A stretch of 50,489 nt of DNA from a virus. Lineage: Duplodnaviria; Caudoviricetes. Location: positions 1 to 50,489 of the IMG/VR virus record IMGVR_UViG_3300011339_000406; one strand, written 5' to 3'. The position numbers and the translations under genes were made by a program. The notes below the pieces were generated by a model that had not been told where the DNA came from, searched no databases, and was given only the letters and a program-made list of their open reading frames with translations. This document shows, piece after piece, positions 19,930-32,293 of the stretch. Position 1 is the stretch's first letter; each line of letters begins with the position of its first letter.

Positions 19930-20384
19930 CGGTAACGTATCAGACCGAAGACCCCGCCGAGTTTATTGAGGCGCTGAAGGGGGTTTTGCCTGAGCACTAC
20001 GATGAGTTGTGCGTTACCAAAGACTTTCCACTCATGCCCGACTACGAGGCATATGGGCGGCTCCATGTAGCGGGGATGTTGCGCTGCATTACAGTTAAAG
20101 AGGATAATGAGCTAATTGGTTACGCAATTTTTATAGTGCATCCACACCTGCACTATCGGTCATGCATAACTGCCTTTGAGGATATTTACTTCCTGAAGAA
20201 GGAACACCGCAAGGGCCGAGTAGGAATCCGTCTGTTCCAGTTCGCTGAAGACGTGCTTAAAAAAGAAGGTGTTCATAGGATAATCATGCACACGAAAATC
20301 CATATGGACAACACGCATCTGTTTGAGTACCTCGGGTACAAGCTTACTGACAAGCTATTTACAAAGATTCTGGAGAAGGTATGA
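19926..20384 (+). CDS. GNAT-family acyltransferase
   Basis: LIGYAIF...EDIYFLKKEHRKGRVGIRLF (acyl-CoA binding motif A)...LFEYLGY. Confidence 0.85.
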   Translation: MTVTYQTEDPAEFIEALKGVLPEHYDELCVTKDFPLMPDYEAYGRLHVAGMLRCITVKEDNELIGYAIFIVHPHLHYRSCITAFEDIYFLKKEHRKGRVGIRLFQFAEDVLKKEGVHRIIMHTKIHMDNTHLFEYLGYKLTDKLFTKILEKV

Positions 20385-22690
20385 GCTACTCTCGCCGTCA
20401 ACTCTACGCAATGGGTGAGCCCCTTGGAGATTCCGCAACATATCGTAAAGCCGGTGGAGGCTTAGTTTGCGGTGGAGGTGGAGGTGGTGGAGGTAGTCCT
20501 TCCAGTACTACTATAAGTTCCGCTGAACTCCCAGACTGGGCTCGGGGGTATGCCAAAAACACGTTGGCCGATGCAGCCAAGCTCACGGACATCAATAAGA
20601 ATCCGTACAAGGCTTACGACCAACCTCGGATTGCTGGGTTCTCCCCCATGCAGGAGCAGGCACAAACGGCAGCTTCAAACATGTCGGCTGGGCCAGAAGC
20701 GTTCCAGAAAAACATGAGTTCGTACATGTCCCCGTACATGCAAAATGTAGTGGACGTACAAAAGCAAGAGGCTGCTCGGCAATCGGGAATTATGGGTACG
20801 CAGCAGCAAGCGCAAGCCGCTCAGTCCGGTGCTTTTGGTGGTGGTCGAGATGCCATCATGCGGGCAGAACGTGAACGTAACCTTGGTCAGCAGATGAACC
20901 AAATTCAAGCGCAGGGCTCCCAAGCTGCGTACGACCAAGCTGCAAATCAGTTCCGTCAAGGTATTACCCAAGACACGGCTATTAATCAGTTGCAAAACCA
21001 ATACGGCGGTCAGCAGCAACAGCAAGCACAACGGGGTCTGGACCTTGGGTATCAAGACTTCTTGAACCAACAGAACTATCCCTACAAGCAGATTGGCTTC
21101 ATGTCCGACTTGGTTCGGGGCTTGCCGTTGGGTCAGCAATCTACAGCATCCATGTATCAGGCTCCCCCGTCGATGATGCAGAACGTCGGTGCTTTAGGCA
21201 TGGGCGCGTATGGCGCAAAGCAGTTGGGTATGTTTGCTGATGGTGGGCAGGTAGATAGCTACGCTGGCGGTGGTAAAGTCAATGCAATGAACGACCAGAA
21301 CCAGATGGCCGACGCAGTGGACAAGCTCACCGACGAGCAGCTACAGCAAATCATTCAAAACCCATCCAGCGCAGCCGAACTTGAAGCAGCCAAGATGGAA
21401 CTAGCTACCCGTGCCTCTGAACGAGGTGGACTTGCCGGTGCTTACAACATGGCCCAAGGCGGCATGGTTGCTTTTGCTCATGGGGGCATTCCCGGATACA
21501 AGGGTGGAGTTTTTGTACGTTCAAACGCAGACGAAGAGTCTGACTATGTAAACACTGCAAACGTGAACGACGAACTAGATGCACTTAGCGAAGACGGAAT
21601 AGCCGCACTTGAACGAGACCAAATCTATTCGGCAGGAAATGCGCCTATGTACAACCGATTTGGTACAAGGCTTGAAAAGGCACTTAACGATAACGATGCT
21701 GCGCCCAATGTAGCACTGCGTACTGACCAAGAAATGGAAGATGCAGCGTTAGCTAGATTTGGACGTTTGAACGAAAGAATTGGTGGGGATAAAAGCTACG
21801 CGGATATCCAAAAGCAAATTGCTGATATGCGCGGGGAGAACGAAGGCTCATTAAAAGAGGCCAGAGGTTTAGCTGCGCTTCAAGGAATGGGCGCAATGCT
21901 TGAAGGTAATGATTTTGCAAGGGCTGCTGGTAAAGCTGCTGCTACTTCTGCCTCTGCATACGCTCCTGCACTGGCTGCTAAACGTAAGGCAGACCAATCT
22001 TTCACTGAGATGAACATTAATTTGGCTAAAGCTCAACGCGCAGAAAAAGCGGGTCTACTTAAAGAAGCCGACATGTACACGCAGAACGCAGAAGCCAACA
22101 AAATTAACGCCAATAAGGCAGCCACAGCATCACGTAAAGCGGGCCTTGAAGCCTTGGCACAAGCAATGCGGGCTACTAAACCTAACCTACCTAGGCCTGC
22201 CGCTGCGGCTAAACCCGGCGATATGAGCTTGTATGCACAAGGTACTCCTGAGCAACGAGCGTTGTATAACGAATTTTTAGAGAAGAAAGGCGCGGGTCTT
22301 GCTGGAGTAATGGCCGGTGTTACAGGTAGAACTGATACTGCGGAAGCAACAGACCTTAGAGCTCGTGACGAAGCTGCGGGCAAAGCAAGTAATGAGGCAG
22401 CAAAACTTCTGAAGAACACAGCCGCCTATAGAGAAGCATTAGACAACGATAAACGTAACGGAACTAAGACCGCTGAAGCTATGGAAAAACAAACGCGGGA
22501 CACTGCTGAAGCTGGGTTCTATAGAAATGCTAGACCTAAAACGGATACAAGCGAAACGGCTAAAACTGCCAAGCCCGATATTAGTAAGGTAGAAGGTGCA
22601 CCTGCTGGTAGTACCGTTGGGGATTACGTGCAAGGCAAAGGCTACAAGGTGTTAGACTCTAAAGGCAAGCATATCGGGTTTGTCCAGTAA
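20381..22690 (+). CDS. DNA ejection/pilot protein (P22 gp7-like N-terminal region)
   Basis: Leader plus poly-Gly, then Q-rich helical region with YMSPYMQNVVD, GAFGGGR and YQDFLNQQNYPY motifs. Confidence 0.65.
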   Translation: MSYSRRQLYAMGEPLGDSATYRKAGGGLVCGGGGGGGGSPSSTTISSAELPDWARGYAKNTLADAAKLTDINKNPYKAYDQPRIAGFSPMQEQAQTAASNMSAGPEAFQKNMSSYMSPYMQNVVDVQKQEAARQSGIMGTQQQAQAAQSGAFGGGRDAIMRAERERNLGQQMNQIQAQGSQAAYDQAANQFRQGITQDTAINQLQNQYGGQQQQQAQRGLDLGYQDFLNQQNYPYKQIGFMSDLVRGLPLGQQSTASMYQAPPSMMQNVGALGMGAYGAKQLGMFADGGQVDSYAGGGKVNAMNDQNQMADAVDKLTDEQLQQIIQNPSSAAELEAAKMELATRASERGGLAGAYNMAQGGMVAFAHGGIPGYKGGVFVRSNADEESDYVNTANVNDELDALSEDGIAALERDQIYSAGNAPMYNRFGTRLEKALNDNDAAPNVALRTDQEMEDAALARFGRLNERIGGDKSYADIQKQIADMRGENEGSLKEARGLAALQGMGAMLEGNDFARAAGKAAATSASAYAPALAAKRKADQSFTEMNINLAKAQRAEKAGLLKEADMYTQNAEANKINANKAATASRKAGLEALAQAMRATKPNLPRPAAAAKPGDMSLYAQGTPEQRALYNEFLEKKGAGLAGVMAGVTGRTDTAEATDLRARDEAAGKASNEAAKLLKNTAAYREALDNDKRNGTKTAEAMEKQTRDTAEAGFYRNARPKTDTSETAKTAKPDISKVEGAPAGSTVGDYVQGKGYKVLDSKGKHIGFVQ

Positions 22691-22699
22691 GGAACTGCA

Positions 22700-25600
22700 A
22701 TGAAATTTGTTCCTCTTTCAGAGGTGGAGTCTGACGTTGGTGAGGCTGCGCCCGCTAAAGCGTTCAAATTTGTCCCCCTAGATGCAGCCCCTGCTACTTC
22801 CTCAACCGCCGCACAAAACTTAGCCGAGGCGCAAGCTAGGCAAGACGTAGCTTCAAAAGGGCCAGAGCAAGTCTCAATACCCCAAGCAGAGTTGGCTGCT
22901 GCGGAAAAAAATGCTGCTGCGCTTAGGAGAGAGCTAGCGCGTAAGGGTGTAGATGTTGGTGCGCCTCCTGCTATTGGGAGCAGCAAGGCCGGGGATTTTT
23001 TACGCGCCCAAGCGCAAGGCCAACAACCCGCCCCCGCCGCTGCGGTAACTCCCGCACCACCTTCCGCCCCTGTGGTAGCCCCCGCCCTTGCTCCTAAACC
23101 CGTAGTCGGTGGTCGGTTTGGTGCCCTTGGTGTTGGCCCCGCCGCACGCCCTGCGCCGCCACAATTGTCTGCATTGGAAAAAGCGCCCAAGGTAGCTCCT
23201 GTAGTGTCTGAGACCCAAACAGCCCTCAACATGGCTGGGGTCAGCCCGCAGTACGTAGCTTCCCTAAAAGCCGAGTTCTATCAGCTACCACCTACCCAAC
23301 GAGTTGCCGCATTGCAGCAAGCAATTGAAGCTAACCCACCCAACACGGTGAAGGGCCGTGCGGTACGCGCAGTAGCAGCAGAAGACGAGGCTTGGAAAGC
23401 GGCAACAAGCAGGACTTCCTCTGCTCGACTCCTCAGCCCTCGGATAGAAGACATAGCGGCGAACATCCAAGCCAAATACCCTGAGCGCCCTGCTGAGCTA
23501 GTCTTGTTGGATGCGCAAAGAGCTATAGACCAAGGACGTAGTGATGTTGATTACGACACCATGCAAAGAGATGTGGTTGGCGAACAAGCTGCTGCCGCCG
23601 CTGAGCAACAAGCTAAAGAACTTGAAGACGCTGGGTTAGCCAGACGTGCGGGTGCTGGGGCTTTATCGGGGGCTAAGAAAAGCGTTGCTGGGCTGGCTCA
23701 GTTTGGGGCTGACCTTTGGGGGGATAAAGAGTTCTCTCAGGAACTAGCAAACACGCAACGCATAGAAGGCGCTAAGTCTGCTGCAATCCCTCAAGGGGAA
23801 GGTGTTTTTGATAAGTCACTTCAAGGGGCAGTTACAAGCCTTGCAACGCAAGCACCTTTCTTGGTGTTGAGTGCCTTGACTGGTTCTCCCGCGCCCGTAA
23901 TGGCACAAGCGGGCCTTGCTACATTTGGAGAAAAATACGGAGAAGGTAAAGCTGCGGGCCTTGGTACTGCAAAATCTGCTATACGGGCAATACCAATGGC
24001 TGCGGCAGAAGTATTTTTTGAGCGTTTTGGTATGACCAAAGCCCTTGGTGGGCTAAAAGCGCATATAGCTAAATACGGTGAAGATAGCGTATATAAGTAC
24101 GTAGCAAAGGCTATAGCAACAGAGCTACCTTCTGAGATGGCTACTACCATATCGCAATACGGTATTGACGTATTGCCCGGTATAGGTCTGAACAAAAAAC
24201 CTAGCCTTATTGACCTGTACCAACAAGTAGAAGAAACGCTACGTCAAACAGTGCTACAAGCCGGAATTACCGCAGGGGCTACTGTGGCTACGGTAAAGGG
24301 CGTTCAAGGTGCTAGAGCTACCCCACAAGCAATAGATGCAGCAAAAGAACGACTCCGCGAAACCGCTAACCAAATAGTCGGCATAGAAAAAACCAACGAG
24401 ATACTTGGCCTTCGTGAAGGTGCATATGAGCGTCCGGGGGAAATAAGCCCAGCCAAGCTCATGGCAGAAATGAAACGAACTCCTTTTGCCTCTAGTTCAG
24501 GTGCCTTGAACGTACCCTCTGTAGAAAAAACCGTTGCTGAACCCAGACTAGGGGACATAGCAAACACGGGTATGCAAGAGGAAGAAGAACCCGGACTGCG
24601 TAGTTTTAAAAATCTAGGAGTGCAAGAGGAAGAAGAACCACCGTTGTTCGCCCCTCCAAACCCAGTAAAAGCAGAAGCGCAACGCAAAGAAGCTGTGACT
24701 GCTCTGGCCAACCGAATTGAACAAGAGCAGGGTATTCCTATTGAGGATGCCGAGCGGATTGCAGCCAATGATATTGCAGCTACCGAGGCGCAATACCGCC
24801 GCATTGCCGGTAAAGGTGTAGACCTGACCCGGATGGAAGAGATTGCACGTTCGCATATAGTGGCTGGTTACCCCCCTCCGGTCGCTATGGAGATGGCCGC
24901 AAAAGCGGTCCAAGAAGAACGCGCCGCCGACGCACTTGCTAAAGAAACAGGAGCACTAGATGTTAGAAAACCTAAGTCCAAAACAAGTAGAAGAGGCGCT
25001 GGCGTGGCTGGCGAGCCCGGAGTTGGAGCCCCCGCAGGACCTGAAACAACTACACGAGATGGAGTGGTTTCTACTGAGTCGGATGCTGGACTCGCTCCTA
25101 CAGGAGAAGCACCACAGCCCGGTGCACTAACTGAAACCGAAGGAACCATTGATGGCACTGAAACCGTTAAAACCGAGCAAACAGAAACGCAAGGACAAGA
25201 AAAACCCGCCGCAGTAGGTAAACCTCCCAAAGCGCCCAAGCCCGTAAAGGTAAAGGAAGCCAAGGGGGATGTGCATACGTTTGAAGAAGCGCAAGAAAAC
25301 AATGCACTTGGTAAACCTGTCAAAACCGGGTACAACTTACTCATCAACGGCGAAAAAGTTGGTACGTACAAAACCAAGCGCCAAGCTGTTGCTGCGTCTA
25401 ACCTAACCAAAGCGGAAAAGACAGGCAATGCTGAACTGATTGCCAAGAACAAGAAAGCCTACGACGATGCAATTGCATCGACTGGCGCTGGCCGACCACC
25501 AAAGGTCTATCCAAGACAAAAGCCTCCCACTGCTACCGCCCCCGCTGTTGAGTCTGAAGAAGCCAAAGCTAAGCGGGAGATGGACGAGGCTAGAGCCGAA

Positions 25601-28600
25601 GCTGCTGCGCAAGAAGAGTCCGACCGTAAAAAAGCGGAAGACTTTGAAGCCAGCACCGCTCCAAAAGCTGAAGGCCCTATTACGGTAGTTGAAACCCAAC
25701 TACTTAGGGGGGATGCGCTTACCGGCGCATCCACAAAGGTCAAGCTATCCGATGGTAGCGAGCACGAAATTAACCGCCAAGACTCTATTACCAGTATGGG
25801 GCTACCGGGGTGGCATGACGTAAATGCCGATACGATAAACAGCTATTTAGCGGATACCAAAGCTGAAGCCATCAAAGAACTAATCCGTCGGCAGGAAAAA
25901 AAGCGTGGAACGGCTAAAAAACCCAAGGGTAAAAAAGCCACCTCCGCCTCTGAAGCCCTTGAGACGGAAGCTAAGGAAAAGCTGGAAGAGCTAGAAGACC
26001 TGCTCAAGAACTACAACACAAACCCTGATGTTGCTAGCGCCAAAGCTTCTGCGCAAAGGATATACCGCATAGCCAACGACCTCGGCGCGCCTAAAGCAGT
26101 TCGGGACCGGGCTAAGAAAATCTTGGCGGACGAGATTGATGTTAAGGATATTGTCACGCAGAACAAAGATGCCATCCGCACTTCTTCTGCTGTGCTGCCC
26201 GGAGCTACGCCAGATGCAAAATTTGCTGAGTTCAAAAACGCCTCACAGGCTATTGCGCATGTAATCAAAACTGGTACTAAGTTTCAGCAAGCGTTGGGCA
26301 ATCGCCTGCGCGGGTTTGTCAACGGAGTCAAGTTTGTAGTGGTCGAGAAAGACCAGAAGGTTCCTGAAGGATTGACTGGTGCGCGTATTGCCAAGCGGTG
26401 GGAAAAATCCATTGCTATGTACGTGGAGAACTACGATACCGGTGAACGCACTGTCTATGTCCGAGGCGCATCCTTTGGCAATCGCCAAGGCCTGAACAAC
26501 ACAACCGTGCTGCATGAACTGCTGCATGCGGCTACAAGTCGGAAGCTTGACCTAGGACTACAAGCTATTAAAGACGGCGCGTCTAGAAGCACAAAGCTCG
26601 TGCGAGATACGATTAAGCTGGTGGAGCTCATGCACAGTTCCGGTAGGCTGTTTAACGACCTCATCAAGCAAGGTAAAGCCACTGAGAGCATGCGGCTGTT
26701 GAACGCATACGGGGATGTATTTTCTGACCCCAAAGAATTCTTAGCCTACGGCATGACCGACGAGGACATGCAGAACTTCCTCATCCAAGCCCACGGGTAC
26801 GAAGAAGACACTCCGTTCTTTACTCGGTTTGTCCGCGCCCTGCGCGACATGTTTGGCATGGGTGAGAACGACACAAACGCTTTGTCTGACCTGATTGTGG
26901 TGTCGGACAGCATCCTATCCACTCGGGTGCCGGTGGCCCAACGTACGGCGGGCATTAGCCTGAGCAGCGCAACAACCAAAGCTAGGCCCAGCGTCAATCA
27001 GCAACGGCTAGCCAAAATGCTCGGCAACAAGCTGTACGGTTCTCCCCAAGACATTGCCAAAGTGTCCATCAAGGAACTGTTCCAAAACGCATTTGACGCC
27101 ATTAAAGAGGCTATGGAAAAGAGTGGGCTTACCTTGGGCAAGGTGAACATCAAAATAGATGACAAGACCCGCACCATCACGGTGATTGACAACGGCCCCG
27201 GTATGCCTACTAGTGTGATGGGCGGGCAGTTCTTGCAAATTGCAGGTACGGTCAAAGGTACAGACCGCGCTTCTGGTGGCCTTGGTGTTGCCAAGATGCT
27301 GTTCTTGTTCGAGAACGATAATCTGGAAGTTGTTTCCCTGCGTAATGGGGTTGTGTCCCGCATGGTCACCACTGGGGATGAGCTTAAAGCTGCTATGGCG
27401 GCAAACCCAGTTACTCTTTTTGAACAACTAAAAGATTTTCTTTCCCCGGAAGACATTGAAGTTATTGCGCCCGCAATACAAGCATCTATTGCTCGTATGC
27501 GGGAAAGTGGAGAAGTTGTACCTGAAATAAAAATTGAAACTTCAAACGACCCTGAAACGGTTGAGAAGTACACCAAGACTATGTTCCCCGATGGGCATGG
27601 TACTGCGGTGGTTGTGCAGATACCCAAGACCTACACAGACACAACTACTGGGGACGAAAAGGTAATTGACTTTAACAAATATGACCTCAAGGATATTCCA
27701 GTTTTAACCGACAGCCCTTTGTTCGGGGATATTGAGGTTACTGTTGATTTAGGGCGTAGCGCGGATACGTTACCTGTAGGGGCAAACTTTCCCAAAGATA
27801 AGTACACGTCGTTTGCCAACGTCAAATTTAATTGGGGTGTTGCCCGCATATACGTAAGCAAAGAAAAACCCACACAGGGCATGTGGGATGGGAACACTTT
27901 TGTGTTATCTAATGGGCTGTGGCAGTTCACAAACAACATGAAGGACCGTCCGGGTTGGGATGGCAAACAAATAAAACGTAAGTTTTACATCGACGTTTCC
28001 CCTGCGAGCAACATAAAGCCAGAAGACCCTGCGTACCCGTTTGAGTTGAACCGCCAAGGTTTTTCTAAGACCGCCGAAAAAGACTTCAAGAAGATATACA
28101 ACTACATCACTGCCATTTATGGGCAGTTGGATTTAGCGCAAGGCGTAAAAAACTTTGGTACGGTTCAATACATGAACTTGGATGGCACACTGTCTAAGGC
28201 CGAAGTACTCGAACCAAAAACGCCCCCTACAGATACTGCGTTTACGCTAATCAAACCCACCGATAAAGTGGAGATTAAAGATGGCGTGATGTACGTAAAC
28301 AACCGGGCAGTGCCTGAGTTGACCAACGATGACTTGTCTAAAACTAGTGTACGTATTGATGAGCTAACCATACCGCAAGACGAACTTGACCCCGGTCGAG
28401 TTATGGTGCACGACAACACCGCATATGCACAACCAGATAAAAAATCTGCGGGAGAAATACTAGATGAATTTGTAGGTAAAAATCCTGAAGAGTTTGCAAT
28501 ACAGTGGAGTTCAACCTTTGATGTAACAGGCCTTAAAGTTTTTGCCCTAGACAAATCAGGGAACAGGGCTACGTTGGATAAAGAATTACAGGGTGATGCT

Positions 28601-31600
28601 GCATCACTTGTTACTCAGCTAGAAAATCTTGGGTGGGTGCCTACGCCAAAAACAGAGGAAAGTAAATCGCTTTCTGATGTTGCACGGGAACTATTTGGTC
28701 AGGGTTACGACTCGTACCTAGCTGGTGTTGGGCGGGTGTTTATGAACCTGCGCTCGGCCCTAGTAGCCGCGCACGGTGACTATGCTAACCTTGCTAACGA
28801 AGTAATCGGTACAAGCATCGACAACGAGTACTACGGGGTAAGCATCAGAGTGCCGTTCCACGGCATGTTCATAAACCCTGCTGTGACTGCGTTGACTGAC
28901 TCTCCAGCGCAGATTGCCTTGTCCCTAATAGGTACGATGGCCCATGAGTTGGCGCACTTCAGAGTGCGTAATCACGGTGCAGACTTTGCTACCGAAATGC
29001 AACGGGTTCTGGTATTGTTAGAGTCGGCACCCAACTCTGACTTGGGGATGCTTAAGAAGTACCTGACCAACCATATTGCTAAGAACCAAAGAATTTTTGA
29101 TTTTTTAAACAAGGAGTTCCGCAGTGGAAATCTCAAACCTCGTGGAAACCGCTTCCAAGACGCTAGCAACCAGCAAATCGGAGATGAAAGCACTGCTCAG
29201 TCAGTGGAAGGCGCTCGCACAGCAGAAGGGTGGCGACCCAGCCTATCTCAAATCTCTGAACCGGGCACTGAAGGTGCTGGAGAACTCGACGACTCTACCG
29301 CAGATGATTCAGACGCTGAAGCGGTCGAACTAGCACTAAGGACTCAAGCCCAAGTTGACCGGGATGTTAAGAAGGCTGCGTATACATTCAACGAGTCCGT
29401 AAAGGGGCATGAGTTTTCTAAGACCATCTCTGCGTTGCAGATGGTGCAAGACCCGCGCAAAGTCCTACCGGCACTACGGGCGTTGTGGAAACGAGCTACT
29501 ACGTCACAGCGCAATGTGTTGGTGTCTTTGCCGACAAACGAATTCTTAGCCGACTGGGCTGGAAACAGCGTACCTGAGCTTACCAATACTGCCAAGCTGA
29601 TGCAGAAGATGTCGGGCATGGCTGAGCGGCTGCTCAAGGCTGCGGGTGAACTGACGGATGAGATTGACCGCACATTCCGCAAAAACCCTGACCTACGTAA
29701 AAAGCTGGACCGCATTACGTTGATGTCTACCCTTGCACAGGTAGACCCAGCAGACCCTAACGTACGGGTAAATTCTGAAGTACTTGATAAGCAATGGCGG
29801 GAACTTGGTGATGATGGGCGACGCCTGTACAAGCGCATAAGAGACCACTTCGACACGCTGTCCAAGTACTACACCCAACTGCTAGACGACCAGATTACTA
29901 AGTCCGGTCTTGACATTGCCCAACAAGCAAACCTGATGAAGAAAATCAGGGCCATCTACGAGACGGGTAGCAAAATTGTTCCGTACTTCCCCCTGATGCG
30001 TGATGGGGAATTCTGGCTGGCAATCGGTAAAGGTAATGGCCGTAAGTTCTTCTTGTTCAAGACACTAGAGGAACGCGACAATGCCATGCAAGGCTTTGCG
30101 GATGAGCGCATTGTGCCCCGTAAGCCCAACGAATCAAAGGCTCAGTTTGACAAGCGCAGGGCCGACAACCTCCAAGAGCTACTGGAGGACTACGACTTTG
30201 AGCATGGCAACAACATAAGCACTATGCGCCGTGCTTCCTACGGCAGCAGCCCCATGCTGGGAGAAGTGTTTGCTGCAATTGACTCGGCTAACCTAGAAGA
30301 CATTGATGCGAAGGAAACCATCAAGGACGCTGTGTATCAGGTGTACATCCAGTCCATGCCAGAGCAGAGCTTCCGCAAGATGTTTATGCACAGGAAAGGC
30401 CGTGCAGGTTTCCGTCCTGACATCCTACAAAACACAGCCCACGCCTCGGCACAAATGGCTTCTCAGCTTGCCCGTATCAAGTACGCGCCGTTGTTGCGCA
30501 ACTCATTGTCTGCGGCAAGAGACTCTATCAGCAACCGCCCACGGTATGAGCCGTTTGTGATTGAAATGCAGCGGCGTGTAGCTCTTAACTTGGCCCCAGA
30601 ACGGCAATCAACTGCGGCTAATATCGCAGGGCTATTGAACAAGGCTTCGTTCATCTACTACTTGGGCGGCGCATCTTCTGCATTGCTCCAGCCGCTCAGC
30701 ATTTTCCAAACGGGTATGCCTGTGCTTGCTCGGTACGGTGCGTTTAACGCCTCCATACAAATGGCAAAGATGCTCAAGGTATGGAACAAGGTGGGGGTGT
30801 ACAAACGTAATATTGACGGTACGCACAGTTTTGTGGGGCCGTCTATGGAACACGGGGCATTGACCCCTTTCCAACGTAAGGCATTTAAAGCTGCTGAAGG
30901 ACGCAAGCTATTTGCATCTACTTATGCTAGCGCAGTCTTTGACTACAAGAGCACTCCTACAGAAGAGCTTAGCTCCCCCACAATGAAGTTTGCCAAGGGC
31001 ACGGTAGACACCTTGGTGCTCGGCGGGCTCATGCACTCAACCGAACGCATGTCGCGGGAGTTCATATACTTCTCCTCTATCGACCTGCAAGTAGCTGCGC
31101 TGAAAAAAGCAGAAGAGGATTTAACATCTGAAGAAGCTGAAAAAATCATAGACCAAGCTGTCTACGACACCAACGAAGCCCTCGGCAACTACGGGGAGTA
31201 CAGCCGTCCGTTGTTCATGCGGAGTGTGGGCGGTAAGGTACTGACGCAGTTTATGATGTACCCGCTGCATGTGTCCTTGTTCTTGCTCAAGAACTTCAAG
31301 GAGATGATTAAGCCAATGAACGGACGCACTCGGCAAGAAGCGTTCAAGAAGTTTTTTGGCACCATGCTGTCTACGTATGTACTTGGTGGTTACGTGGCGC
31401 TTCCAATGTTCAGTACCCTCATGGGGTTCATAGGCGCAGCGTTCAATGCTCTTAGGGGCGACGATGACCAAATACCTGATTGGGAACTGTACGTACGTGA
31501 AGTTTTGATACCGGATATGTTTAACCAAGTTACGATTGACGGTAAACCGCTGTCCCAGTATCTTGACCCAGAACTAGCTAAAACTGGGCCCTTGAACTAT

Positions 31601-32293
31601 TTCACCGGGGCAGACTTCTCTGGTCGCACCCAGCTTAACAACATGTGGTTGCGGGACACTAAAGTACACGCGACGTTCAGAGAAGATGCTATGGCGTTTG
31701 CGCTAGAGAAAGCTGGCCCTGCGGCAAATATGCTTGTTGCATACGGAGAAGGTTTTGAAGCTTTGTTTGCAGGAGACTACGGCAAAGCAATGAAGAAGTT
31801 TGCCCCTGCTGGATTCCGCAATTTTTCTACTGCTTATGAGCTATACACCCAAGGCGCTAAAGACAGCAAAGGCAATCAGCTACTTAGCAAGGATGCGTTT
31901 AGTACTGGGGCGTTGATTTTCCAAGCTGTTGGCTTTAGGTCGGATGCACTGGCTAACCTTCAGTACGTCAACTTTACAGTCATGGGCATAAAGCAAAAGA
32001 TAGCCAATGAACGCCAACAGATACTGAATAAGCTAGACCGAGCAGACCGTGAAGGCGATACGGCTGCATATAGCAAGGCCTACAAAGAGATGGAAAAATT
32101 TAATGACAAGCACTATGAACTGGAAGTGCAAATATCACCCGACTCCTTAGCAGAATCGTTAGAGGCACGGCGAAAACAACGTGCAGAAACTTGGCGCGGG
32201 GCTAGGTTGGAAGCTGCGGGAACTTACGACAAGTACTTGTCTGCCTCTAGAAGGAAAGCTGCCGAAGCCGAGGCAGAAGGGCGCAAGAAATAA
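22700..32293 (+). CDS. Giant polyvalent ejection protein (zincin + GHKL ATPase + zincin + PLxRFG-like + helical C-terminus)
   Basis: 3197 aa. HELLH at ~aa1272; KELFQNAFDA ~1458, DNGPGM ~1497, GGLGVAK and GHGT (GHKL boxes); HELAHxxxxxH ~2082; YFPLMRDG ~2431. Last gene of the virion module. Confidence 0.85.
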   Translation: MKFVPLSEVESDVGEAAPAKAFKFVPLDAAPATSSTAAQNLAEAQARQDVASKGPEQVSIPQAELAAAEKNAAALRRELARKGVDVGAPPAIGSSKAGDFLRAQAQGQQPAPAAAVTPAPPSAPVVAPALAPKPVVGGRFGALGVGPAARPAPPQLSALEKAPKVAPVVSETQTALNMAGVSPQYVASLKAEFYQLPPTQRVAALQQAIEANPPNTVKGRAVRAVAAEDEAWKAATSRTSSARLLSPRIEDIAANIQAKYPERPAELVLLDAQRAIDQGRSDVDYDTMQRDVVGEQAAAAAEQQAKELEDAGLARRAGAGALSGAKKSVAGLAQFGADLWGDKEFSQELANTQRIEGAKSAAIPQGEGVFDKSLQGAVTSLATQAPFLVLSALTGSPAPVMAQAGLATFGEKYGEGKAAGLGTAKSAIRAIPMAAAEVFFERFGMTKALGGLKAHIAKYGEDSVYKYVAKAIATELPSEMATTISQYGIDVLPGIGLNKKPSLIDLYQQVEETLRQTVLQAGITAGATVATVKGVQGARATPQAIDAAKERLRETANQIVGIEKTNEILGLREGAYERPGEISPAKLMAEMKRTPFASSSGALNVPSVEKTVAEPRLGDIANTGMQEEEEPGLRSFKNLGVQEEEEPPLFAPPNPVKAEAQRKEAVTALANRIEQEQGIPIEDAERIAANDIAATEAQYRRIAGKGVDLTRMEEIARSHIVAGYPPPVAMEMAAKAVQEERAADALAKETGALDVRKPKSKTSRRGAGVAGEPGVGAPAGPETTTRDGVVSTESDAGLAPTGEAPQPGALTETEGTIDGTETVKTEQTETQGQEKPAAVGKPPKAPKPVKVKEAKGDVHTFEEAQENNALGKPVKTGYNLLINGEKVGTYKTKRQAVAASNLTKAEKTGNAELIAKNKKAYDDAIASTGAGRPPKVYPRQKPPTATAPAVESEEAKAKREMDEARAEAAAQEESDRKKAEDFEASTAPKAEGPITVVETQLLRGDALTGASTKVKLSDGSEHEINRQDSITSMGLPGWHDVNADTINSYLADTKAEAIKELIRRQEKKRGTAKKPKGKKATSASEALETEAKEKLEELEDLLKNYNTNPDVASAKASAQRIYRIANDLGAPKAVRDRAKKILADEIDVKDIVTQNKDAIRTSSAVLPGATPDAKFAEFKNASQAIAHVIKTGTKFQQALGNRLRGFVNGVKFVVVEKDQKVPEGLTGARIAKRWEKSIAMYVENYDTGERTVYVRGASFGNRQGLNNTTVLHELLHAATSRKLDLGLQAIKDGASRSTKLVRDTIKLVELMHSSGRLFNDLIKQGKATESMRLLNAYGDVFSDPKEFLAYGMTDEDMQNFLIQAHGYEEDTPFFTRFVRALRDMFGMGENDTNALSDLIVVSDSILSTRVPVAQRTAGISLSSATTKARPSVNQQRLAKMLGNKLYGSPQDIAKVSIKELFQNAFDAIKEAMEKSGLTLGKVNIKIDDKTRTITVIDNGPGMPTSVMGGQFLQIAGTVKGTDRASGGLGVAKMLFLFENDNLEVVSLRNGVVSRMVTTGDELKAAMAANPVTLFEQLKDFLSPEDIEVIAPAIQASIARMRESGEVVPEIKIETSNDPETVEKYTKTMFPDGHGTAVVVQIPKTYTDTTTGDEKVIDFNKYDLKDIPVLTDSPLFGDIEVTVDLGRSADTLPVGANFPKDKYTSFANVKFNWGVARIYVSKEKPTQGMWDGNTFVLSNGLWQFTNNMKDRPGWDGKQIKRKFYIDVSPASNIKPEDPAYPFELNRQGFSKTAEKDFKKIYNYITAIYGQLDLAQGVKNFGTVQYMNLDGTLSKAEVLEPKTPPTDTAFTLIKPTDKVEIKDGVMYVNNRAVPELTNDDLSKTSVRIDELTIPQDELDPGRVMVHDNTAYAQPDKKSAGEILDEFVGKNPEEFAIQWSSTFDVTGLKVFALDKSGNRATLDKELQGDAASLVTQLENLGWVPTPKTEESKSLSDVARELFGQGYDSYLAGVGRVFMNLRSALVAAHGDYANLANEVIGTSIDNEYYGVSIRVPFHGMFINPAVTALTDSPAQIALSLIGTMAHELAHFRVRNHGADFATEMQRVLVLLESAPNSDLGMLKKYLTNHIAKNQRIFDFLNKEFRSGNLKPRGNRFQDASNQQIGDESTAQSVEGARTAEGWRPSLSQISEPGTEGAGELDDSTADDSDAEAVELALRTQAQVDRDVKKAAYTFNESVKGHEFSKTISALQMVQDPRKVLPALRALWKRATTSQRNVLVSLPTNEFLADWAGNSVPELTNTAKLMQKMSGMAERLLKAAGELTDEIDRTFRKNPDLRKKLDRITLMSTLAQVDPADPNVRVNSEVLDKQWRELGDDGRRLYKRIRDHFDTLSKYYTQLLDDQITKSGLDIAQQANLMKKIRAIYETGSKIVPYFPLMRDGEFWLAIGKGNGRKFFLFKTLEERDNAMQGFADERIVPRKPNESKAQFDKRRADNLQELLEDYDFEHGNNISTMRRASYGSSPMLGEVFAAIDSANLEDIDAKETIKDAVYQVYIQSMPEQSFRKMFMHRKGRAGFRPDILQNTAHASAQMASQLARIKYAPLLRNSLSAARDSISNRPRYEPFVIEMQRRVALNLAPERQSTAANIAGLLNKASFIYYLGGASSALLQPLSIFQTGMPVLARYGAFNASIQMAKMLKVWNKVGVYKRNIDGTHSFVGPSMEHGALTPFQRKAFKAAEGRKLFASTYASAVFDYKSTPTEELSSPTMKFAKGTVDTLVLGGLMHSTERMSREFIYFSSIDLQVAALKKAEEDLTSEEAEKIIDQAVYDTNEALGNYGEYSRPLFMRSVGGKVLTQFMMYPLHVSLFLLKNFKEMIKPMNGRTRQEAFKKFFGTMLSTYVLGGYVALPMFSTLMGFIGAAFNALRGDDDQIPDWELYVREVLIPDMFNQVTIDGKPLSQYLDPELAKTGPLNYFTGADFSGRTQLNNMWLRDTKVHATFREDAMAFALEKAGPAANMLVAYGEGFEALFAGDYGKAMKKFAPAGFRNFSTAYELYTQGAKDSKGNQLLSKDAFSTGALIFQAVGFRSDALANLQYVNFTVMGIKQKIANERQQILNKLDRADREGDTAAYSKAYKEMEKFNDKHYELEVQISPDSLAESLEARRKQRAETWRGARLEAAGTYDKYLSASRRKAAEAEAEGRKK
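24960..25130 (+). CDS. Candidate overprinted small protein (+1 frame), 56 aa
   Basis: AGGAG at 24949-24953, ATG at 24960; MLENLSPKQVEEALAWLASPELEPPQDLKQLHEMEWFLLSRMLDSLLQEKHHSPVH. Confidence 0.6.
   Translation: MLENLSPKQVEEALAWLASPELEPPQDLKQLHEMEWFLLSRMLDSLLQEKHHSPVH
25152..25217 (+). CDS. Candidate overprinted basic peptide (+1 frame), 21 aa
   Basis: AAGGA at 25140-25144, ATG at 25152; MALKPLKPSKQKRKDKKNPPQ. Confidence 0.35.
   Translation: MALKPLKPSKQKRKDKKNPPQ
29124..29333 (+). CDS. Candidate overprinted helical protein (+1 frame), 69 aa
   Basis: T-rich leader, AAGGAG at 29111-29116, GTG at 29124; amphipathic helical sequence. Confidence 0.55.
   Translation: MEISNLVETASKTLATSKSEMKALLSQWKALAQQKGGDPAYLKSLNRALKVLENSTTLPQMIQTLKRSN

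Follow-up and report, generated by a model that had tools for sequence, protein, structure and literature searches.

The window analysed here, the whole stretch of 50,489 bases taken from a virus record, has the layout of a podophage, with tail and virion genes followed by a giant gene and then by primase, helicase and polymerase genes on the opposite strand. The gene upstream of the giant gene (20381-22690) matches a DNA ejection protein. The giant protein carries an LPD39 domain (aa 2264-2407; 34.4 bits, above the Pfam cut-off of 27), a DarB-like PHROG match at its C-terminal end (E 7e-43) and a GHKL ATPase, and this combination places it among the phage polyvalent proteins as characterised in the available part of PMC5512222; it is multidomain, contains LPD and MPTase-type domains and lies within the virion module. 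Judging from this gene context and from the analogy with phi24B gp47, as described in the accessible portion of bioRxiv 10.64898/2026.04.10.717836, it would be packaged and injected together with the DNA. The features of the giant gene that concern us are as follows.

22700-32293, plus strand: gene for the giant polyvalent, ejection-type protein (3197 aa; LPD39, DarB-like PHROG match, GHKL ATPase)
24960-25130, plus strand: nested +1-frame gene of 56 aa preceded by AGGAG; family found in 47/77 loci
25152-25217, plus strand: nested +1-frame ORF of 21 aa, a very basic peptide; family found in 16/77 loci
26993-28150, plus strand: GHKL ATPase and transducer-like domain, giant aa ~1432-1817, from Pfam and structure matches
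28667-29122, plus strand: Wss1/WLM-like zincin metallopeptidase, HELAH at aa 2082-2086 and third His at 2092; predicted docking site of the nested protein
29094-29106, plus strand: U-rich tract TTTTTGATTTTTT, within the codons of the zincin's last helix (I-F-D-F-L)
29111-29116, plus strand: Shine-Dalgarno (SD) sequence AAGGAG, 7 nt upstream of the GTG; the giant frame reads the same bases as Lys-Glu
29124-29333, plus strand: nested gene of 69 aa in the +1 frame of the giant gene, a four-helix bundle predicted to bind the zincin and its likely inhibitor
29141-29161, plus strand: main-frame motif R-G-N-R-F-Q-D (aa 2148-2154), directly behind the zincin and under constraint in both frames

The nested ORF begins where the GHKL-ATPase/Wss1-like zincin module ends. 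The model of this module (giant aa 1432-2141) has a pLDDT of 88, and its GHKL part matches GRP94 (Z 19.5) and ParE (Z 18.5), with further matches to Hsp90, SMCHD1 and MORC at E ~1e-9; Pfam HATPase_c is found in 59/59 module sequences. The zincin part resembles Wss1 (5xbn, Z 8.9, rmsd 2.7 over 109 aligned residues; 5ln5, Z 8.1). Pfam matches at E<=0.01 are weak, to YgjP-like in 34/59 and WLM in 12/59 sequences (best 1.2e-4), and the window module scores 17.7 bits against YgjP-like, for which the curated cut-off is 26. HExxH is invariant and the third His conserved at 0.98 across 98 sequences, the complete motif being present in 75/77 and 23/25 loci, and from these residues the zincin looks catalytically active. 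The module was not found in any cultured phage (50,697 records), where neither it nor the nested peptide of the window has a relative and distant modules match only at their GHKL parts. A viral model, A0A516L4L2, holds the module (TM 0.73), and the ESM Atlas contains viral clusters of similar GHKL proteins that carry no functional names. In two loci (L025 and L027, rows 7 and 8 of alignment A4) the module contains, or is immediately preceded by, a match to the ART-PolyVal ADP-ribosyltransferase. A second zincin-like domain lies upstream in the giant protein of the window at ~26190-26945 on the plus strand (aa ~1165-1415, HELLH at aa 1272).

The nested ORF opens with the GTG at 29124, closes with a TAG ending at 29333 and overlaps main-frame aa 2142-2212. 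The 69-aa peptide, the GTG, the AAGGAG, the 7-nt spacer and the +1 frame described in an earlier note on this DNA were all borne out in the sequence. By itself the length of the ORF is unremarkable, as its 74-codon stop-free stretch is in joint third place among the gene's 160 such stretches in the +1 frame (87, 82, 74, 74), and the excess over chance comes from its retention in relatives selected by the module and not from its length. It is, however, the only alternative-frame ORF of at least 25 codons in the giant gene with AAGGAG 4-11 nt ahead of its start. Between 22000 and 33000 there are two sigma-70-like sites, fewer than the 7.1 in shuffles and none of them close to the nested ORF, and an internal promoter was rejected on these grounds.

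In order to follow the ORF among relatives, loci were gathered by the module alone and not by the nested peptide. A search with a zincin alignment returned 54 viral and 27 metagenome loci, the metagenome scan covering 30 of 64 parts; with the window included, 71 of the loci are distinct. Scored as an ATG- or GTG-started +1 ORF of at least 55 codons at the zincin's end, the ORF is present in all 71, and applied elsewhere in the same giant genes the test passes at 113 of 985 positions (11%). A second set obtained with whole-module patterns (best 80 of 185 kept) added 25 further distinct loci, of which 25 have the ORF, as do 3/3 AT-rich distant loci. In total 99/99 distinct module-selected loci keep the +1 ORF down to ~28% module identity; disruption of the ORF in relatives that retain the module, which the earlier note had named among the observations that would speak against a gene, was looked for and occurs in 0/99.

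Across 102 loci, including six found via the peptide, the nested ORF has a median length of 73 codons (range 57-162), with the assignment of the start uncertain in a few (e.g. L054, L067 and L210). In 101 of these 102 loci no stop interrupts the giant frame over this span. In the exception, L115 (853-1095), the giant frame stops within the nested gene and the nested frame continues, either through faulty assembly or because the giant gene is broken. Among the most distant loci, L139-L141 for example, a profile comparison does not match the ORF to the peptide of the window, so that kinship there rests on position. The AT-rich distant modules of L140, L141 and L221 keep HExxH with the third His replaced, and a nested gene of 57-63 aa is still there.

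The position of the gene is tied to the module and not to what follows. A GHKL match lies ~580-735 aa upstream of the zincin's end in 68/77 loci; eight of the nine others hold too little upstream frame and L135 is a true miss. Downstream, an LPD39 domain directly follows the nested gene, as in the window, in 37/77 loci, lies 408-651 aa away in eight and gives no match in 30. In L044 and L104 the other zincin of the giant protein, a relative of the zincin-like domain that lies upstream in the window, directly follows the nested gene instead of LPD39, an arrangement showing domain shuffling around the cassette. In 10/77 loci other domains intervene between the nested gene and LPD39 or the C-terminal region, and the gene stays at the zincin's end. 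As it is found at the module's end throughout, the nested gene is part of the GHKL-zincin cassette and not of the downstream domain. The suggestion that it directly follows the module as an immunity gene would is thus upheld in that it adjoins the module and is co-inherited with it across the module-selected loci.

The gene had also been counted as the third nested in the giant gene, correctly, two other conserved +1 ORFs lying upstream at 24960-25130 and 25152-25217. The 56-aa gene lies at a variable distance of 782-1563 aa upstream of the zincin's end and has a pN/pS of 0.62 in the nested against 1.32 in the main frame. The 21-aa ORF (24-50 aa in the relatives shown) has values of 0.47 and 1.01 respectively.

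The signals that would start translation of the 69-aa protein were examined through the codons that the giant frame uses over them. At the start column the bases are AGT, GAT, AAT or TAT followed by G in 35/35 close zincin-selected loci, codons that span four main-frame amino acids and always end in T, against a T-ending background of 47%. The Lys-Glu dicodon over the SD is written AAGGAG in 34/46 cases compared with 41/419 elsewhere in the module, and an SD-like motif precedes the ORF in 66/71 loci. Judged by this codon choice, the start codon and SD codons of the nested gene are under selection. The same approach did not support the proposal that the U-rich tract is an enhancer. The Phe codon is TTT in 105/175 cases at this site against a background of 1967/2984, and five T in a row occur in just 33% of relatives. 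As TTT is not in excess the idea was dropped; the tract represents the Ile-Phe-Asp-Phe codons of the giant protein and is not a selected feature.

These signals bear on whether the ORF could instead be reached by a +1 ribosomal frameshift, giving a shortened giant protein with an alternative C-terminal cap. The ORF starts at the zincin's end, a U_UUU_UUA heptamer lies ahead of it in the window, and an intramolecular cap would likewise dock on the zincin. Heptamers of this type drive -1 shifts, however, and a -1 shift at this one leads into a different short frame; such heptamers are found in 21/102 loci only, a +1 stop lies at a median of 5 codons ahead of the start, and both the ATG/GTG and the SD are selected. 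With a selected start and SD, an upstream +1 stop and rare heptamers, a frameshift fusion was rejected as very unlikely to account for the ORF.

Substitution patterns over the overlap separate the two frames. In 38 close loci the pooled pairwise dN/dS of the nested frame over four divergence bins is 0.23, 0.28, 0.27 and 0.24, and that of the giant frame over the same overlap 1.39, 1.18, 1.39 and 1.77, both sets of values pooling pairs that are not independent. Within the zincin mismatches peak at main-frame codon position 3 (0.33/0.24/0.59), and within the overlap they peak at main-frame position 1, which is the nested wobble position (0.43/0.28/0.21). On this comparison the nested gene is under purifying selection, and the frame-specific conservation put forward as a check in the earlier note takes the form of a constrained nested frame beneath a giant frame with a dN/dS above 1. 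A chance open frame arising from the low-complexity composition of the linker might be envisaged, given that the giant gene has four +1 stop-free stretches this long and that the giant frame constrains the first ~12 codons. Retention in 99/99 loci, selection on the nested frame and the selected start and SD speak against it; the frame-specific tests refute a chance ORF, the likelihood of which we regard as negligible. The nested ORF is almost certainly a real gene.

The main frame over this span had been described as a disordered acidic linker, and it is indeed mostly a passive spacer except at its beginning, where the first ~12 nested codons are constrained in both frames. Here the main frame carries a G-x-R-F-x-D motif (conservation G 0.88, R 0.74, F 0.72), and because of this motif nested codons 7, 9 and 10 have fixed wobble bases (G 98%, C 81% and T 76%). 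The R-G-x-R-F-x-D motif could be a cleavage site, or a strand packing on the protease. Past the motif the nested wobble bases are 54% G and 8% T against a background of 23% and 34%, a bias that keeps the outer frame free of stops and rich in Gly, Glu, Ser and Ala.

The gene had been called overprinted, and the ORF does lie within the giant frame. The order of origin that this term implies is only one of those that the data allow, since the nested frame is the more constrained of the two. Among the 99 loci there is neither a module without the ORF nor a free-standing pair of genes. With the inner frame more constrained, a small gene that is the older of the two, and over which the giant frame later opened, agrees with the sequence data no less well than a new overprinting.

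The predicted fold of the 69-aa protein consists of four helices (residues 3-12, 18-34, 39-54 and 58-68) with a pLDDT of 92.5, so that the helical bundle anticipated from the sequence is also what the model returns. Searches with the protein against Pfam, PHROGs, NCBIfam, PADLOC and PDB sequences gave scattered weak helical matches only. Foldseek with the model gave no match at E<=0.001, the best VIA-align Z of 7.7 is below what helical bundles reach through arrangement alone, and the ESM Atlas held no usable match. This absence of a family or fold match does not show a new fold. Profiles of immunity families did not match the first member, and EntA_Immun matched 2/79 members at E 0.008. The PADLOC profile JetD1 (Wadjet JetD; profile positions ~100-164) matches 11/79 nested proteins of alignment A3 weakly (best E 1.3e-4), which may be a helical chance match.

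The small domain also occurs inside longer called proteins. P0020 (273 aa, on contigs of up to 78,923 bases) contains two versions of it in one protein, aa 45-113 resembling the peptide of the window and aa 212-270 resembling those of L132-L134, and from this arrangement it is possibly a poly-immunity protein; no locus for it was found in the viral collection. P0022 (185 aa), P0026 (205 aa) and P0028 (117 aa) each hold the domain, one of these three with a long N-terminal extension and one with hydrophobic membrane-like segments after the domain. P0024 (1265 aa) does not match the family profile and was dropped as a chance hit. A profile search directed at longer proteins turned up no free-standing or fused form in the 8000 candidates that were scored, a result of little weight, and the module was not seen beside a separate, non-nested small gene.

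In order to address what the protein might bind it was folded together with the whole 710-aa module, as had been proposed. Binding to the module's zincin is predicted with an ipSAE of 0.84 (0.84, 0.79 and 0.85 in individual runs), against 0.00 for the best of three controls, including one that keeps the partner and replaces the module. In calibration, the counts of which apply roughly to the alignments used here, the 0.84 mark is reached by 116/157 solved and 2/215 mismatched pairs. The runs agree in at least 93% of contacts with a partner pLDDT of at least 86. The confident contacts are confined to the zincin, the GHKL part being free of them, and fall at aa 2044-2046, at aa 2063-2065, along the active-site helix in its first half, as far as His2082, and at aa 2091-2108 including His2092. 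Two of the three zinc ligands (H2082 and H2092) are therefore contacted; neither the catalytic Glu2083 nor His2086 makes a confident contact. From the anatomy of zincins we take the contacted surface to be the primed side of the substrate cleft, with one of the contacting segments presumably the strand that lines it. Covariation is slight among the 25 pairs predicted to lie closest (mean MI-APC z 0.51, p 0.008) and 8 of the top 25 inter-protein covarying pairs fall within both interfaces, where 9% are expected, a signal that is weak, ignores kinship and is not independent of the folding model's input alignments. Interface residues are no more conserved than the rest on either side (nested p 0.90, zincin p 0.29), and searches of the PDB found no like complex. 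Overall the complex model makes it probable that the nested protein binds the zincin.

This prediction argues against a real gene whose product acts elsewhere, on a host protein, on the GHKL clamp or in DNA packaging, and which is held in place by co-expression or linkage. Such a gene would be in keeping with the two further nested genes in the giant gene, which imply that linkers host small genes generally, with the presence of the domain in the longer proteins P0020, P0022 and P0026, and with the weak JetD match (11/79 members, best E 1.3e-4). Set against this are the complex score of 0.84 compared with 0.00, the module-replaced control included, and a position fixed at the zincin's end across modules down to ~28% identity, and we regard another target as improbable.

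What binding would do to the zincin is harder to assess, as the binding model cannot separate inhibition from activation or chaperoning. The small protein may be a folding chaperone, a stabilising subunit or an activator of the zincin, for example in timing self-cleavage of the giant protein, and linkage and predicted binding are explained equally well in this way. Many zincin interface residues are hydrophobic, and no locus has lost the gene, those with a substituted third zinc ligand included; its persistence in L140, L141 and L221, whose zincins lack the third His, also counts against an inhibitor. Autoproteolysis has in addition been proposed for polyvalent-protein zincins in the available part of PMC5512222. 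However the module folds confidently alone (pLDDT 88), and a block fits the predicted contacts, among them two zinc ligands and the presumed cleft-lining strand, better than a scaffold does. A chaperone or activator thus appears rather unlikely, though a good deal less so than another target, and we lean towards inhibition of the zincin, with the nested protein as the cognate inhibitor of the Wss1-like protease domain encoded just upstream.

Wss1 cleaves DNA-bound proteins. In the reading we favour, the giant protein would be packaged and then injected together with the DNA, and once inside a fresh host cell its ATPase-protease module would attack proteins, which may be DNA-bound like the substrates of Wss1. 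While virions are being built, the small protein, translated from the mRNA of the giant gene, would keep the protease quiet in the producing cell by docking, as modelled, on the active-site helix of the zincin, in contact with two of its three zinc ligands; it would stay behind when the giant protein is packaged or ejected, and the protease would thereby be released. Through nesting, the inhibitor would follow its enzyme on every transfer of the module from one giant gene to another, at no more cost to the giant protein than a spacer rich in Gly, Glu, Ser and Ala.

In polymorphic toxin-immunity pairs a small gene lies right after an enzymatic domain, is co-inherited with it and encodes a product that binds it. 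The locus described here shares the small gene after an enzyme domain, the co-inheritance and, by prediction, the binding. It differs in that the enzyme sits in the interior of a 3197-aa protein, with its partner wholly nested in another frame. Embedding of this kind is known from Rz/Rz1 of lambda, where the inner gene lies in the +1 frame and its product binds that of the outer gene; these are membrane spanins of lysis, unlike the soluble helical bundle predicted here to bind a protease domain. In phage ShiLan an HNH endonuclease read out of frame, with a GTG start, lies in a methylase gene as a homing insertion, and the available part of its description (PMC11855218) likewise shows a functional out-of-frame gene within a phage gene, the outer frame staying open as a loop. 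Unlike the ShiLan gene as presented there (PMC11855218), the gene of the window has no nuclease motif, encodes 69 aa that are all helical, is never absent beside the module (99/99) and has a product predicted to bind the outer protein. A homing out-of-frame endonuclease of the ShiLan type was rejected on account of the missing HNH nuclease and the presence of the gene in 99/99 loci. OAFI (bioRxiv 10.1101/2024.11.07.622342, as far as its accessible text goes) is an engineered, synthetic alternate-frame insertion, and the present case is natural and kept over deep divergence.

The folds of the two module halves are those of the Wss1/WLM zincins (5xbn, 5ln5) and of the GHKL ATPases (Hsp90, MORC, topoisomerase B subunits and T4 rIIA); unlike in those proteins, both are fused here as one module within a virion-type protein. 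Phage polyvalent proteins with MPTase and LPD domains, in the parts available of PMC5512222 and of the phi24B gp47 report (bioRxiv 10.64898/2026.04.10.717836), are giant multidomain proteins of virion type, as here with LPD39. For neither is a nested gene or a cognate zincin inhibitor mentioned in those parts, and GHKL, HATPase and overlap are absent from the main text of PMC5512222. The accessible portions of work on GHKL in rIIA-like proteins (PMC7824862) and on HExxH in N4 vRNAP (PMC13434306) do not cover the module of the window. In the literature surveyed, mostly papers free of subscription, neither this module, nor genes nested within those for polyvalent or ejection proteins, nor a nested inhibitor was found described. 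Nested phage genes as such are already known (Rz1, ShiLan), and the gene of the window likely works like one half of an effector-immunity pair. Whether the whole amounts to a mobile, ATP-driven Wss1-like protease cassette in giant injected proteins, with its cognate inhibitor in the +1 frame of the following spacer and hence an effector-immunity pair in one ORF, we judge to be evenly balanced.

Polyvalent ejection proteins presumably carry enzymes into the host, which the phage has to make and store while sparing the cell that produces it; a cognate inhibitor nested in the same gene offers a concrete and testable answer to this problem of self-harm. The small protein would serve as a reagent for cloning and assaying the undescribed GHKL/Wss1-like module. 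A spacer that resembles fast-evolving disorder, with a main-frame dN/dS >1, can be a second gene, and a hidden second gene matters both to the annotation of giant phage genes and to selection scans of them. The locus also provides a natural and deeply conserved counterpart of the laboratory alternate-frame insertion design. If the proposed pairing of protease and inhibitor is true, polyvalent proteins would quite generally conceal the regulators of their domains within their disordered linkers, and proteins with tandem copies, of which P0020 is one, would provide poly-immunity against rival phages.
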